IMG/VR virus record: IMGVR_UViG_2671180547_000013
Reading direction: 5' to 3' (one strand)
DNA: 47,489 nt
Source of the DNA: a virus
Lineage: Duplodnaviria > Heunggongvirae > Uroviricota > Caudoviricetes
Part shown: positions 2,794 through 38,129 of the stretch, piece by piece
Layout of the letters: every line of letters starts with the position of its first letter
Position numbering within the stretch: the first letter of the stretch is position 1
Position numbers and translations under genes: made by a program
Notes under the pieces: generated by a model
What the model was told of the DNA's origin: nothing
The model's input: only the letters and a program-made list of their open reading frames with translations
The model's database searches: none

Positions 2794-5386
2794 TTGCATA
2801 TTCCTTAGCCCAGCGGGGCAGTGATAACGTCTTAATAGCTGGCCATTCATCGGTATTGAGGCAGTCAGCCAGGGTTCGCAGATTGCGGTGATATTCCAGC
2901 TGACCTGCCAGTTTTGCTTCTTCGCCCATCATGAAAATTTCAACCGGATAACGTCCGCATTCAATAGTTGTGCTGGCAACCAGAAAAACGAAAGTTGGCT
3001 GCACTCCAAACTGTGCTTCATAACCGTCACTGTAGAATGCATCCTGAACGTGATAGCGGTAGTCGTAATAAGCGGTTTTGAATCGTTGAATATCCGCCGT
3101 AGTTTTCACGTCCATGATCCAGTGAAATTCAGGGATAATTTTGTCCGGACGGCACCGACACAAAATTGCTGTTTCAGGATCTTCCCAGTAAATTGATGAT
3201 TCAGCGTGTCCGGCGCTTTCAACAAGCCATTGCCCCAGCGGCAAAGCCATAACGCTCTGATACATGAGTTCAATTTTCCGGCCTTCTTCGGCAGTGATAA
3301 CCGTTTTTCCTGTGCTTGCGCATTCCCTCAGAAACGCTTTCTCTTCTTCTTTTCCGGAGTTTGTCCGGCGGTTAAATTCAGGTGCTACGATAAAGCGGTT
3401 ACTGAATTCTTCCGGCTCAAGTACCCGGCAGTGGAAAGCGGTTCCTAAATCGAGCGTTTTTGTCTTTGTGGTGTCCACGGGGGCATTTTTACGCCACAAA
3501 TACAGTGCCGGAGTATCAGCAATGTCATCGAGCTGAGACTTACTGACACCGGGACCCGCGTGGTAATTCTCATTCGAAATTCCGTAATAAATACCTGGCT
3601 CTATGTCTTCTACGATTACGGGATCTGCGACTTCGCCAGTTTCATCACTGCAATCGCGATGCGGATCGCTGCCAGCATTCTCATTGTGCGGATGTTCAGC
3701 GCCTTCCATTTCCTCCGGATCATTTTCCTTAGCTTCAACCTGACTCTCTTCATCGAATGTTTCCTGGTATGTTGCGTCGCCCATCACCGCACCACAGTCA
3801 GGGCAGTTATCCCCGCCAGTCTGGCCGCAGGCATTGCAGGCTATTTCCGGTTCCTGTTGCACTACTGGCTCAGGTTGATTCATATCCGGGCTGGTTTTTT
3901 CCGTTTCTGGCTGGTTCTGGTACACACAATCGCGAGTCTGGATCCCCTTTACCCATTTCGGATCGTTCGGGTCGCTAATTCCGTCAACAAATTCACCACG
4001 TGATGCAGCAAGCAATTTATCGGCATCGACAGGATTTTTTGATGGAATGTTTTTCCGGGCTTCATGGAGTTCTGCCCGCAGTTCCTGATATTTCGCATCA
4101 ACAGAATTTACCTGTGACTGAGCATCCAGCGGCTGCGTGTCCTGATGATGTTCAGTTGCGTCCGGTTCCATTGTTTCAGCCTCTCCCTGTTCAACTGCCG
4201 TTGTTCCAGATGGTTGCGGTTTTTCTTCATCATCCTGTTTTCCTTCTTCTGTTACTCGCTGCGGCATCGGGGCAGAGGAGCGACCGCAGGCAATATCCAC
4301 GATTTCCGGATCAGGGTTGGCATGATCGGTTTCAGTCAGTACTTTGTTCAGATATTCAGTGACGTGCGCGGGGATGACCTCGATCCCAATTGGTGCTTCT
4401 TTTACGGACGCAACCACGATGGCGCGGGAATAATCCAGCCCGCCAGGCATGGTGATGAATTTGTCGCGGAAAACAGAAAAGGGCGGTTTATTTTCAGCGA
4501 TAATTTCCTCAATGCGTTTAGCGTGTGCCGGATGAAGGTTATAGATGTCCAGATCCATTGAACGGGCCAGTACGCCAGTGGCTACGTCCCGCGCCAGTGA
4601 CGTCAGATCGTGTACGAAACCTTCGCCGCGATCGGTGAGGTTTCCGCCGCCAGCATTAGCACCGGAAGCCGTGCGAGTGATGTGTGAAACACGATTACCC
4701 TTCATCCACTCTTTTGTCAGCAGTCCTCGATCGGTGTAGTCAGCGTTCAGGTATGCTTCGAAAAAAGCAGTTATCAGTCCCAGGTTTGAATTACCAGGAT
4801 TAGGGAAAACTTTGTCAGTGTCACGAACCAGTTTGTGGAGTTCGCGAATTTCCAGCGGGTCGAGCAGGCTGGTTTTGTGGGAAACAGCCAGGGCAGTAAC
4901 AGCCGGTAGTTCTTCAGCCCGAGCAATGTGTAATGCCTGGAGTCCGTCGCGTGAAACGTGCGTTACCGGTTTTTCGCTGCCGTGTTGAGCAAGCCAACGA
5001 ATGGGCAGTTCCTGGCCAGAAATTGGGAGTAGCATATTCTCCTCAATCTCAGGCATGTCTTCGCCGTTGACGTTGGTATTGCCTTGATAGTGAGCGTTGT
5101 CTGGTGCTGCTCCCGGTTTTAGTTCCCATGTCATGGAGTCTTTGCTGAGTTGATAGCGTTCACTCCAGGTAAAATCGATCTCACCTTCAGCGGGCAGGTC
5201 ATTAACGACAGGAAAATTCGTGGCAACAGCTTTAAAATAGCTGCTCAGTTTTTTACCTGACTTAACGATCAGGTAGTCCAGAGTGGCACAGGTCGATTCA
5301 AAATCGTTGCTTGCCCACAGGACGACGTCAGGTTCACCGGATGATTTTTTCGCTTTCCGTAACAGGAAGAGTGGTTTTGTGCTCAT
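2786..5386 (-). CDS. recE: RecE exonuclease VIII, 866 aa
   Basis: 866-aa ORF directly upstream of and overlapping recT; length and sequence consistent with Rac RecE. Confidence 0.9.
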
Positions 5387-32949: not shown

Positions 32950-33912
32950 GTGAGTTCAGGTGCAAAGGTTATCTCGGCATTTATCCGGGAGACGGTTGCA
33001 GGCACTACGCCAGCAAGTGGTGACTGGAGTTTATTAAAACGCACAAGCTGGGGAGTAAAACCCACCCAGAATAAAGGCGAAAATAATGAGATTGGTGGCT
33101 CCCGGATGGCTCAGGGGGCGACGCCTGGCACTGTGGATGTCGGCGGTGATGTTGGTACCAAATTTCGCTGGGGTCAACATGATGATTTTCTTGCATCCTG
33201 TTTCGGCGCGGAATGGTCAGGCGATTCTCTGACAATGGGGAATGAGCGAATAACATTTTCTCTGGCGACCTATGCGTCCGATGTCGGAATTGCCTCTGTC
33301 GTCAGAGGAGCGCAGGTTGGCTCATGGAAAATGCAGATCCCTAACGACGGCGATATTACAGCGACCGTAACCTTTGCCGGACTGGACTGGGAATCAAAGG
33401 CCGATGATACGAATTTTATCAAAGGCGAACCTGTGGATAGTGCAGGAAAGCTACGTTATTCGTTTAAGGAGGTTTCAGCAGTAAGCCTGAATGGTGTTGC
33501 CGGAGGTAACGGTTTTTGTATCGACAGTTTTGATATTCAGTTCGATAACAAACTCCAGACACAGCGTTGTATCGGGACTGGCTCGCCTTATGCAGGAGCA
33601 AATATTCCGACTACTTTTACACCGTCCGGTACGGTGACGCTTTCATGGTCTAAAGCCGCGTGGGAAATCTGGAGTAAAACACTGACTGGAGAAACAGTTC
33701 CGTTCAGCTTCACGCTTTCGAATGGAGAGGGGGCATACACTTTCAGTTTCCCGAAGGTTCAGGTGTCAGGTGAATGGCCTGATGGGGGTAATAGCGACAT
33801 TATCCAGGTTCAATTGAGCATTACCGCAGCAGATGAAGCACCTACGATAACCAGAAAAAAAAATTCCCCGGCTGCCGTGATCGCAAAAGCCAGTGCTGAG
33901 GCGATTAGTTGA
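32950..33912 (+). CDS. Major tail (tube) protein, 320 aa (GTG start)
   Basis: AGGAGG 5 nt upstream; Gly/Thr/Ser-rich protein before the chaperone and tape-measure genes. Confidence 0.7.
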   Translation: MSSGAKVISAFIRETVAGTTPASGDWSLLKRTSWGVKPTQNKGENNEIGGSRMAQGATPGTVDVGGDVGTKFRWGQHDDFLASCFGAEWSGDSLTMGNERITFSLATYASDVGIASVVRGAQVGSWKMQIPNDGDITATVTFAGLDWESKADDTNFIKGEPVDSAGKLRYSFKEVSAVSLNGVAGGNGFCIDSFDIQFDNKLQTQRCIGTGSPYAGANIPTTFTPSGTVTLSWSKAAWEIWSKTLTGETVPFSFTLSNGEGAYTFSFPKVQVSGEWPDGGNSDIIQVQLSITAADEAPTITRKKNSPAAVIAKASAEAIS

Positions 33913-33960: not shown

Positions 33961-34422
33961 ATGAGGTTATGGATGTTTATTCTTAATCAGAAAATTATCA
34001 TTGGTGGAGAACGCTGGTTTACGCCAATGAAGGACTTAAAACCTGTAGACGGGTTAAAACTGTTGGTGGCAAGCAGCGATAACGATCAGTATCGCTCCCG
34101 TAATGCATTAATCCGTCGCCACATTGAGAAAATGGATGCCAGTTTGCACGTCGGAACGAAGGAGTTTGATATTTCAAAGGTTTCCGAGGTGGATTCTGTT
34201 GATGATTTACTCATTGATAATGCCGCTCGTTATCTGCTGAAAGACTGGAAAGGGGTTGGTGAACTGGTTAATGGTGTTGAGGTTGCACTGGAATATACGG
34301 CAGAACGAGGGATCGCGCTGCTTAAGCAGAATCCAGAGTTGTACTGGCAGATCCTTGCAGAAGCAGCCAGCATCGCCCAGGGTAAAGAGCAGCAGAAGCA
34401 GGATACGATAAAAAAGCCATAG
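33961..34422 (+). CDS. Tail assembly chaperone (lambda gpG analogue), 153 aa
   Basis: Acidic protein directly upstream of the tape-measure gene; ends ...DTIKKP with slippery heptamer in its last codons. Confidence 0.7.
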   Translation: MRLWMFILNQKIIIGGERWFTPMKDLKPVDGLKLLVASSDNDQYRSRNALIRRHIEKMDASLHVGTKEFDISKVSEVDSVDDLLIDNAARYLLKDWKGVGELVNGVEVALEYTAERGIALLKQNPELYWQILAEAASIAQGKEQQKQDTIKKP

Positions 34423-34730
34423 CTGCCCAGCGGTGGTTATCGGAGTTCGGGGGAGAAAGGGGGGAAAAGGCAAGATGGAAGCGAGAAAAACTCAGGTTGC
34501 CACCGATACCGGAACCAGAAATAGACCCGGTGCTTAAGGAGTTGTTGTACGCCTATTCGGTAATATCCCGTGCCCGACGTTATGCTGGAATGGCTGGGGT
34601 GCCTTTGCCTTTATCTCTGACAGAGATAAATGAATATTTAGCCACTCATCCGGTATTGATTGAGCGCGATGAATTTGAAGCAGTGATCTTTGCACTGGAT
34701 GACCAGTATTTTCAGGAGCAGTGTGTGTAG
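33961..34730 (+). CDS. Tail assembly chaperone frameshift fusion product (lambda gpGT analogue)
   Basis: G frame to 34416, then -1 frame (GCC at 34416 ...) to TAG at 34728; the downstream frame lacks an ATG start (track used TTG at 34497). Confidence 0.6.
34410..34416 (+). other. Programmed -1 ribosomal frameshift slippery heptamer A_AAA_AAG
   Basis: AAAAAAG in the G frame (codons AAA 34411-13, AAG 34414-16); the -1 frame is open from 34386 to the stop at 34728-34730. Confidence 0.7.
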
Positions 34731-34850
34731 TTGTTAATTACGTACACTCTGTTACAGAGATGTGATGGTGTCTTTAATTAAATCGATGATGCTCCTGGAG
34801 AAAAGCATTGCGTGGCCTCGTAATCGCTATATCTACTATTATGTCGCCTG

Positions 34851-34876
34851 AAACCCACTTCGCGGTGGGTTTTTTG
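34851..34876 (+). terminator. Terminator-like hairpin immediately upstream of tape-measure gene
   Basis: AAACCCAC-TTCGC-GGTGGGTTT followed by TTTTGTTG; 20 nt before the tape-measure RBS. Confidence 0.5.
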
Positions 34877-34895
34877 TTGTCAGGAGTTTTAATAA

Positions 34896-37800
34896 ATGGC
34901 AGAGCAAACCTCGCGTCTCGCAATAATTATTGATAGCACTGGAGCGAAAAATAATGCTGACAATCTGACCTCCTCATTAGTCAAAATGACGCAGGCTGGG
35001 GAAACTGCTGCAAATAGCGCAGGGAAAGTGACTAAGGCAACAGAAGATGAGAAGAACGCGCTCGCAAAATTAAAAGCAGCTATTGATCCAGTTGGTGCCG
35101 CAATTGATACTGTCGGTCGACGCTATTCTGAATTAAAGAAATTTTTCGATAAAGGGCTTATTGATAAAGAAGAATATGAATTTCTTGTCCGTAAACTTAA
35201 TGAAACCACAGAGGAATTGAGCGGGGTTGCGCAAGCGCAGAGAGAAGCCGAGAAGGCCGGAAAACTTGCTGCCGCCCAGCAGGAAGCGCAGGCTCAGGCC
35301 TTTCAAAGAATGCTGGACAAGATCGACCCTCTGGCTGCGGCGCTAAGAAATCTTGAACAACAGCATGATGAACTTAATGCTGCGTTTGCATCCGGGAAAA
35401 TAAATGGTTCTCAGTTTGAGAATTATAGCCGAAAAATACAGGAAACACGGCGAGAGCTTACCGGAGAGGCTCAGGCAGAGCGAGAAGCAGCAAAAGCGCA
35501 TGATGAACAGGTTGTTGCTTTGCAACGTCTGATTGCTCAACTTGATCCTGTCGGAACTGCTTTTAATCGTCTGGTAGAACAACAGAAACAGCTCAATGAA
35601 GCAAAAGCTAAGGGGATGCTTTCTCCTGAAATGTATGAGGAGCTTTCTGGAAAACTTCGTGCTATGCGGAGTGAGCTTGAGGTTACTCAATCACAATTAA
35701 GCAAAACCGGAATGTCGGCAAAACAAACGGCTTTTGCTATGCGCATGTTGCCTGTACAAATGACGGATATTGTTGTTGGGTTGTCCACTGGTCAGTCGCC
35801 ATTTATGGTGTTAATGCAGCAGGGCGGCCAGCTAAAAGATATGTTCGGTGGGATTGGCCCGGCGATCAAAGGTGTAGGTTCTTATGTGCTGGGATTAATT
35901 AATCCTTTTACCCTGGCCGCAGCAGCCGTTGGGGTCTTAGGACTGGCTTACTATAAAGGCTCTCAGGAGCAGGACGAATTTAATAAATCTCTTATTCTTA
36001 CCGGAAATCAGTTGGGGACAACCAGCGGGCAATTGGGCGATATAGCTCAACGTGCCGGGAATGCGGCTGATTCGACAACTGGTGCTGCGGCGGCAGTATT
36101 AAATCAGCTTGTGCGTTCGGGAAAGGTAGCGAGCAGTTCGCTGGAGCAAGTGACGACAGCGATAGTAAAAACGAGCGAAGTAACAGGAATATCAACCGAA
36201 CAACTGGTTAATGACTTCAATGAAATTGCAAAGGATCCTGTCAGTGCCATATCAAAACTTAATGATCAGTACCATTTTCTGACACTTGCGACTTATAACC
36301 AGATTAAGGCGCTACAGGATGAAGGGAACCAGCAGGAGGCCGCCCGCATTGCGACAGAAGAATACTCATCCTCAATGATCCAGCGCACCAACCAGATTAA
36401 AGAAAATCTTGGTTATCTTGAGACTGCATGGAAAGCTGTCGCAGACTCCGCAAAATGGGCATGGGATTCCATGCTGGATATTGGCCGTGAGGCCTCCCTT
36501 GATCAAAAAATCTCAGATGTTCTCCGTCAAATTGATGAAATAGAAAAAAATACCCGACCCGGAGTTTTCGGGTTAGGTGGCATTGGAGATGGCGGAGCTC
36601 AAAATAAAAGGCTGGCACGATTAAAGCAGCAATTGGGCGTACTTCAAGCAGAAAAAATTGCTCAGGACGTACTAAATTCATCAATAAACGATTACAACAA
36701 GCGACAACAGGAAGGAATTGAACTCAGACAGAGAGCAGATGCCTTTTCAAAACAATATCAGACCCGGGAGCAGCAGAGAGCTAGTGAACTTGCAAAACTG
36801 GAAAAGCTAAAGAATCAGTATTCAAAGGAAGAATATAATAATCTTATCGCTCAAATAAATGAGCGTTATAAAGATCCAAAGCAACCAAAGGCGAAAGGTT
36901 ATTCTGATGATGCAGCCCAACGAATGATTGATCATCTGAATCAACAGAATGCGTTACTAAGTTCACAAGCTGAGTTGACCGTTAAATTAAGTTCCTCTGA
37001 ACAGGAACTGGTTAAGTGGCGTCAGCGGATTGCCGACCTAGAGTCACGACCATCATCGAAATTAACCCAGGATCAGAAATCGCTTCTCTTACACCGGGAA
37101 GAAATAACCACGTTGATGGAGAAAAATGTTGCGATTGAAAAAAATAACAGGCTAATCAAGGAATCCGCCGAAATAACAGCATGGCGTGATTCATTGCAGG
37201 CTTCGATTGATAATCGTCAGCAGGGGTATGATATTCAGATTGCTGGTTATGGGGTTGGCGATAAAAATCAGCAACGCCAGCAGGAATTACTGCGGATTGA
37301 ACATGGATATAACAATCAGCGTCTGCAACTTGAACGTGACTATGCAGATAAATCCCGTGGAATGTCAGATCATGTTTTTCAAGAGAAAATGCAGGCTCTG
37401 AATGATGCTCTGGAACGGGAAAAAGAAATTGTCAGACAGAAAAACGAGCAGCTCGATATTCAGGCAGGAGACTGGGTTAGTGGTGCCTCCCAGGGATTCA
37501 ATAACTGGCTGGATGACACTAAGGATATCAGTGAGCAGATAAAATCAACCACGACTCAGATGTTTGATGGGATGACCGATGCGCTGGGTGATTTTGTCAC
37601 GACAGGCAAGGCAAATTTTCGTTCTTTCGCTACTTCCGTGATTTCGGATCTTAGTCGAATAGCATTAAAGGCTTCAATTACTGGGATTTTCGACAGCATT
37701 AGTAACAGTTCTTCTGGGGGGATTTTAGGAACTATCGGGAGTGCTATTAGTAAATTTATTCCGAATGCAAAGGGCGGTGTTTATGAGTCTCCGTCATTGA

Positions 37801-38129
37801 GCACGTATTCGAACGGTATTTATGATTCCCCGCAATTTTTTGCTTTTGCAAAAGGGGCTGGTGTTTTTGGTGAGGCTGGACCGGAAGCCATTATGCCATT
37901 AACACGAACTTCCGATGGTTCTCTTGGTGTCAGAGCTATTAATAGTAAAAGTGGTAATGGAGGCGGAGATATTACCTATGCCCCTGTATACCAAATCACT
38001 ATTCAAAATGACGGCCAGAATGGAGAGATTGGCCCTCAGGCAATAAAAGCACTTATGGGGATGGTTGATCAGCGGGTGCAGGGCAATCTGTTAAATATGC
38101 GACGTGATGGGGGAATGTTAAGTGGCTAA
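34896..38129 (+). CDS. Tail tape measure protein, 1077 aa
   Basis: Long helical protein with repeated coiled-coil segments, Gly-rich hydrophobic central region and C-terminal region; AGGAG Shine-Dalgarno. Confidence 0.9.

Follow-up and report, generated by a model that had tools for sequence, protein, structure and literature searches.

The tail assembly chaperones G and G-T of bacteriophage lambda were reportedly described by Levin, Hendrix & Casjens in 1993 and by Xu, Hendrix & Duda in 2004, 2013 and 2014 (as cited in PMC5009743), and the G/GT-type pair with a programmed -1 ribosomal frameshift is said to have been defined as a class by Xu, Hendrix & Duda in 2004. Lambda G forms a coat on the tape measure protein, and the tube protein is brought in through the T part of GT (PMC5009743). 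The slippery heptamer A_AAA_AAG is known from the Escherichia coli dnaX gene (gamma/tau), where it is decoded by a single tRNA-Lys (PMC5009743), and also from the ECs1801 chaperone of the E. coli O157 Sp9 prophage, which was placed in cluster A_AAA_AAG_25 and marked as true (Sharma et al. 2014, PMC4066793). Here we describe a ydaY-type gene and the reading frame downstream of it in IMG/VR record IMGVR_UViG_2671180547_000013, a Caudoviricetes sequence of 47,489 nucleotides (nt) that we refer to in its entirety as the window. Comparative sequence analysis indicates that a G/GT-type programmed -1 ribosomal frameshift very probably occurs in this gene and yields a fusion of 252 amino acids (aa). 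Coordinates are those of the window unless a related locus is named, and all genes, frames and sites of this region lie on the + strand.

Slip site and overlapping reading frames

The zero-frame gene, which carries the name ydaY in RefSeq, spans 33973..34422 and encodes a G-like tail assembly chaperone of 149 aa. An alternative upstream ATG at 33961 would give a version of 153 aa, but a group of viral contigs with G products 90-92% identical to that of the window (L077-L082 and L084) has a stop codon between both candidate ATGs, an indication that G truly begins at 33973. The gene ends with ACG ATA AAA AAG CCA TAG (T I K K P stop, with the stop codon at 34420-34422), and the AAAAAAG at 34410..34416 is therefore phased as A_AAA_AAG (ATA AAA AAG, with CC next); it is the sole in-phase X_XXY_YYZ heptamer of the gene. 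In the -1 frame, a TAA at 34383-34385 is followed by an open stretch that begins at 34386 and runs up to a TAG at 34728-34730. The stops of both frames thus delimit an overlap at 34386..34422 that contains the slippery sequence and in which both frames are open, and a fusion of the two requires a -1 shift inside it. Translation of the -1 frame over 34416..34730 gives a T-like segment of 104 codons (AIAAQRWLSEFGGE...QEQCV, followed by the TAG).

The initial annotation of this sequence had proposed a zero-frame A_AAA_AAG in the last codons of a gpG-like gene and a -1 frame open from 34386 to 34730; both can be read directly from the letters and the coordinates are exact. Its further statement that the -1 frame has no ATG start stands for the first 68 codons, which contain no ATG, but not for the whole frame, since there is an ATG at 34590 that would encode an internal methionine 46 codons from the end. 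The earliest start-like codon is the TTG at 34497..34499, and further ones are GTG 34530 and TTG 34542/34545. An ORF (open reading frame) in the +1 frame, with an ATG at 34475 behind a purine-rich stretch, was also considered and was dismissed because it has 20 codons only.

The window has 25 copies of AAAAAAG where 13.9 would be expected, and its open frames of at least 90 aa hold 114 in-phase X_XXY_YYZ heptamers. The heptamer by itself is not significant, and the case for frameshifting depends on its position and on related sequences. Among in-phase A_AAA_AAG and G_GGA_AAG sites, the one at 34410 alone lies a few codons ahead of a zero-frame stop and is accompanied by a startless -1 extension of about 100 codons. 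The ydaY-type gene and the T frame are also found in the position expected of a G/GT pair, between the major tail tube protein gene (32950..33912, 320 aa; Pfam Phage_tube_2, E=9.4e-32; PHROG 290, E=3e-112) and the tape measure protein gene (34896..38129, 1077 aa; Pfam TMP_2, E=3.9e-81, and Tape_meas_lam_C, E=3.9e-26; PHROG 24).

Conservation of the slip site and of both frames

We compared the site across 95 related loci, 15 of them taken from genomes of other species and the other 80 from viral contigs, which comprise 55 distinct sequences and about ten genera (Escherichia, Shigella, Citrobacter, Raoultella, Siccibacter, Pectobacterium, Serratia, Pantoea, Dryocola, and Scandinavium). All 95 have a slip-type heptamer at one shared codon column: AAAAAAG in 91, GGGAAAG in three (Raoultella, Serratia, and Pantoea), and GGGGAAG in one (Pectobacterium). 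The exchange of AAA for GGG is a triple adjacent substitution that changes the encoded amino acid, while X_XXY_YYZ is kept and the result is G_GGA_AAG, the heptamer read in lambda. This complete occupancy of the column, together with the coordinated change from AAAAAAG to GGGAAAG, supports the original suggestion of a conserved tail-chaperone frameshift site.

The GGGGAAG sequence belongs to Pectobacterium odoriferum NCPPB 3839 (locus L013, positions 2920-2926) and is non-canonical, differing by one base from the GGGAAAG of a near-identical Serratia locus (L014); it may represent a recently damaged prophage or a slip site that operates in the P site only.

Among the related loci the zero-frame stop floats from 2 to 37 codons past the heptamer. 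In L077-L082 and L084, for instance, the zero-frame TAG after the heptamer is replaced by TTG and G is 30 codons longer (183 aa), with the -1 peptide unaltered. The -1 peptide itself is free of gaps in relatives from codon 1 (A[IL][EA]AQ[KR]WL.EFGGE.GEK..W.REKL.LPPIPEPEID...). To describe the constraint on each frame we compared 15 divergent sequences and simply counted how their codons differ. Over the 15 codons that lead up to the heptamer, synonymous changes make up 47% of the differences in the zero frame and 2% in the -1 frame; over the 28 codons that follow it, the shares are 61% in the -1 frame, 13% in the zero frame, and 6% in the remaining frame. Because the synonymous fractions swap at the heptamer, we conclude that the constrained frame switches there, far upstream of any possible start. 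The slip site is thus retained in divergent homologues in which both frames are under coding constraint.

Possible independent initiation of the downstream frame

One alternative is that the downstream ORF forms a small gene in its own right, whose translation begins at TTG 34497, GTG 34530 or TTG 34545 with no frameshift. Database records treat it in this way: in GenBank and RefSeq it appears as a "hypothetical protein", with separate coding sequences (CDS) starting at the equivalents of 34545 (ON032529) and 34530 (ON470581), and PHROG 1189, which matches the T part with E=1.4e-36, is a family built from standalone calls of this ORF. There is also an AAGGAG at 34536-34541 that immediately precedes TTG 34542/34545.

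The distribution of constraint does not fit this explanation, as the 28 codons that lie upstream of the earliest start-like codon are conserved as protein, without gaps and mainly with synonymous change. The column of TTG 34497 reads CTC, CTA, AAG, CTT, CTG, or TTG in relatives and is not a start in most of them; the second ORF, which overlaps the first in the -1 frame, therefore has no conserved start of its own. The AAGGAG lies 0-3 nt from the TTG codons, and a Shine-Dalgarno spacing of 0-3 nt is too close; moreover, the two residues that it encodes (KE) differ in relatives. Start calls are inconsistent across databases, with products of 60-138 aa that are all named "hypothetical protein", and distant homologues align continuously through the junction (see below). 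Independent initiation is accordingly highly improbable in our estimation, and the view of the initial annotation that the downstream ORF is not translated on its own is supported by the -1 peptide kept upstream of the first start and by the unconserved TTG 34497 column, as far as sequence comparison can indicate.

Distant relatives and variable P-site codons

A tblastn search with the conceptual 252-aa fusion recovered two-frame, two-piece matches in Klebsiella, Erwinia, Pseudomonas, and Acinetobacter phages. The conceptual fusions of the Pseudomonas, Acinetobacter, and Erwinia phages share 27-55% identity with that of the window, and those of phiPSA1 (32% identity, E=2e-36), TRS1 (31%, E=6e-19), and TCUAN1 (27%, E=1e-20) each align in one BLASTP segment that runs through the junction. 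In a multiple alignment of these distant fusions the junction falls in a single column, and the last zero-frame codon is AAG with an A before it, without exception. The P-site codon is variable in the distant relatives and can be AAA, GGA, GAA (Pseudomonas; G_GAA_AAG), or GCA with a subsequent TAA (Erwinia; GCA_AAG_TAA).

Across the ydaY chaperone family, A_AAG in the A site is the sole invariant element of the junction, except in one Pectobacterium prophage (G_AAG, with GGG in the P site). On this basis the ydaY family could be a natural allelic series in which single-tRNA slippage in the A site is sufficient and the P-site codon tunes the ratio of G to GT, a possible reading that we nevertheless regard as rather unlikely. 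If true, the series would permit a direct test of how much variation in the G:GT ratio is tolerated by tail assembly.

Transcriptional slippage and gene decay as alternatives, and database variants

The same G-T protein would result if RNA polymerase added an A in the run of six A residues. Variants with runs of five and seven A residues (A5 and A7) exist in the databases, which indicates that the run is mutable at the DNA or the sequencing level. Transcriptional slippage in bacteria is generally productive only on runs of about 8-9 or more, and we found no long homopolymer that is conserved across homologues. Relatives with GGGAAAG, GGAAAAG, and GCAAAG have homopolymers of at most 3-4 bases and yet show the same two-frame arrangement, and what is conserved is the in-phase X_XXY_YYZ or A_AAG pattern rather than the length of the run. 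Because these relatives lack a long run, transcriptional slippage is not the conserved mechanism, and we consider it most unlikely as an explanation of the arrangement.

That the two frames represent a decayed gene (a frameshift mutation of a single ORF) or a homopolymer assembly error has almost no probability: the window is a prophage, prophages accumulate frameshift mutations, and single-ORF fusion entries do exist (P0001 and P0002), but the identical arrangement occurs in 1062 E. coli genomes (at least 80% query coverage) and in about ten genera, purifying selection acts in both frames, and the two fusion entries can be traced to a 35-bp deletion between 10-bp repeats (P0001) and to paired indels (P0002). 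Both independent initiation and pseudogenisation are contradicted by the fact that conservation is frame-specific.

The 10-bp direct repeat in question, GCAGAAGCAG, is found at 34357-34366 and 34392-34401, and the sequence of P0001 (E. coli NB16F79_39920, 240 aa), ...ILAEAGYDKKAIAAQRW..., is what a 35-bp deletion between the two copies would leave. Such a deletion would join G and T in one frame and would make P0001 a natural GT-only variant. Database proteins with an altered A-run at 34410-34415 include P0002, P0004, P0006, P0010, and P0128. The sequence ...DTIKSHS..., present in several database proteins, corresponds to A5 instead of A6 and hence to the +1 frame, and P0128 reads ...ETVKKAIEAQ..., which corresponds to A7. 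These A5 and A7 cases are length variants or homopolymer sequencing errors in public assemblies.

Predicted products and possible stimulatory elements

Under the programmed frameshift that we propose, most ribosomes would read ATA AAA AAG CCA and stop at the TAG, giving the 149-aa protein, and a minority would slip back by one base as tRNA-Lys on AAA and AAG re-pairs on AAA AAA. Decoding would then resume at GCC 34416 in the -1 frame and add 104 residues, producing the 252-aa G-T fusion, for which the corresponding CDS would be join(33973..34416,34416..34730). The predicted masses are about 17 kDa for the G protein and about 28 kDa for the fusion. The predicted junction peptide of the fusion is ...DTIKKAIAAQRW...; digestion with Asp-N / Glu-C is predicted to release DTIKKAIAAQRWLSE as the junction peptide, while trypsin would cut at the KK junction and hence be uninformative. 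If the products act like lambda gpG and gpGT, the G part common to both may coat the tape-measure protein and the T part may recruit the tail-tube protein, with a fixed low ratio of the products setting up tail assembly. What we observe directly is how the sequence is built, where the gene lies, that a slip site is conserved, that the coding frame switches at the heptamer, and that no independent start is conserved; slippage itself, its efficiency, and the roles of both products are what we infer.

The dinucleotide after the heptamer in the window is CC, and a 3' CC showed the greatest tendency to shift of the dinucleotides after a slip site in one systematic study (reviewed in PMC5009743). 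No conserved downstream structure was recovered with RNAalifold from 13 divergent sequences (-3.45 kcal/mol, with 6 scattered pairs), and a conserved stem-loop of the dnaX type, 5-9 nt past the heptamer, was not found. A local hairpin in the window begins immediately after the heptamer; it is not conserved and has z=+1.5 when the single sequence is folded and compared with shuffles. Upstream, an AGGA at 34400-34403, 6 nt before the heptamer, could act as a Shine-Dalgarno-like stimulator, but the Siccibacter, Pectobacterium, and Serratia relatives lack it, and the Q-E/D codons are a confounding factor.

Protein families and annotation status

The G part matches PHROG 313, "tail assembly chaperone", with E=4e-46 over profile positions 13-149 of 258. 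The T part has a weak match to the same profile (E=0.0097, positions 173-246), and because the 258-position profile covers both parts in this way, PHROG 313 includes fused annotations. The T part also gave a match to the Pfam family PF23812 (Phage_TAC_18) of 20.7 bits (E=4.7e-4, T residues 31-99), which is below the gathering threshold of 27 bits, and the resemblance is suggestive only. The G part had no match in our local copy of Pfam, the fusion protein had none in NCBIfam, and a profile of the G alignment retrieved nothing from the sequences of PDB. Structure prediction for the T segment was poor (predicted local distance difference test score, pLDDT, 60.5; predicted template modelling score, pTM, 0.34), and the model was unusable.

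The homologue in TRS1 (RefSeq NC_031098) is annotated as a two-piece joined CDS that ends at the end of the -1 frame, and is the only such record among those inspected. Salmonella phage SPF_0923, which is 100% identical, the vB_EcoS phages, the Klebsiella phages, and the E. coli genomes listed among our matches have either two separate genes or ydaY only. The E. coli, Salmonella, and Klebsiella records that we inspected use the names "protein YdaY" or "hypothetical protein", in some cases with a separate "hypothetical protein" that has an arbitrary start. A full-text literature search for ydaY with frameshifting, or for the Rac prophage with tail assembly chaperones, returned nothing relevant, although the list of Xu et al. 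2004 was not covered by it.

The ydaY-type locus is present in 1073 of 5426 complete E. coli genomes, or about a fifth. K-12 strains (hits H31-H39, query 122-791) carry a 5'-truncated ydaY in a Rac remnant in which the slip site and the T frame are 100% identical to those of the window, and the cassette has therefore outlasted the loss of much of the structural gene module. In some annotations the truncated K-12 ydaY is fused to the ParB-like ynaK (P0041, 246 aa, PF27119 and PF02195).

What we describe is not a new mechanism but an unannotated case of a known phage mechanism, given that the phenomenon is textbook knowledge and that a distant homologue is already annotated with a join. For the same reason, and considering how many complete E. 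coli genomes contain the locus, the value of the finding lies mainly in annotation: recognising the join would allow the 252-aa GT product to be annotated correctly and would assign a function to two ORFs that lack a name. It would also contribute a family in which one homologous column can hold either A_AAA_AAG or G_GGA_AAG.

Prophage context and neighbouring sequences

The window is an intact Rac-type lambdoid prophage, an identification based on Rfam matches to the RalA antitoxin small RNA (1557-1735, 225 bits) and to STnc100 (17831-18017, 86.6 bits). An integrase-sized ORF is found at the left end, recT/recE-sized ORFs are present, and the ORFs beyond the tape-measure gene match lambda M, L, K, I, and J in size.

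Within the tail-tube gene there is a run of nine A residues (AAAAAAAAA) at 33855-33863, 17 codons before the stop (...ITRKKNSPAA...). A run of this length could give rise to polymerase slippage or length variation, and the -1 frame that follows it is open for 11-12 codons only.

The T frame and the tape-measure gene are separated by a gap of 165 nt (34731-34895), which as a whole folds with z=-2.28 and includes a strong hairpin at 34850-34873 with a T-run, resembling an intrinsic terminator, just upstream of the tape-measure ribosome-binding site. At the corresponding position, relatives from Pantoea, Scandinavium, and viral contigs have a hairpin with a T-run but a different primary sequence (L015 3286-3314; L017 3262-3300; L085 about 3740-3779; L077 3271-3434). 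This element may be a terminator that is read through by late antitermination, or an element of RNA processing or stability.

Comparison with known systems

The dnaX gene shares the heptamer of the window, but it combines an upstream Shine-Dalgarno-like element with a downstream stem-loop, shifts with high efficiency, and makes a shifted product that is the shorter one, whereas no conserved downstream hairpin was found for the window and the shifted product would be the longer one. The ECs1801 chaperone is closer in context, as there too A_AAA_AAG comes right in front of the zero-frame stop of a tail chaperone, in a lambdoid prophage of E. coli. We considered whether it belongs to the ydaY family and rejected this, since the 124-aa protein, of the HK97/Sp9 type, has no sequence similarity to the G part of the window.

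The annotated TRS1_18/TRS1_19 pair of Acinetobacter phage vB_AbaS_TRS1 (RefSeq NC_031098) is homologous and shares the junction column, with an in-phase G_GGA_AAG. It differs from the window in its identity of about 30%, in its host, and in its P-site codon, which is GGA rather than AAA.

Like the pair in the window, lambda G and GT are encoded between the major tail and tape-measure genes, with a startless -1 extension and a heptamer shortly before the zero-frame stop. The heptamer of lambda, G_GGA_AAG, is used by some ydaY relatives, while the window has A_AAA_AAG; the T part is 104 aa in the window compared to 144 in lambda; and where the window has a 165-nt gap with a terminator-like hairpin between T and the tape-measure gene, lambda T and H overlap. 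We detected no similarity of the window to lambda gpG or gpT, with no BLASTP match at E<=100 and an hhalign probability of 0.2% for both. The description of the gene as gpG-like in the initial annotation is therefore apt for its position and mechanism, in which it is an analogue of lambda G/T, but does not extend to its sequence. The same annotation's suggestion of a lambda-like G-T fusion made by -1 slippage is in agreement with the position of the gene, the conservation of the slip site, and the switch of frame, all of which point to the predicted fusion protein. Judged by its sequence, the element in the window has every feature expected of a conserved tail-chaperone frameshift, and it lies outside the lambda G/T families.
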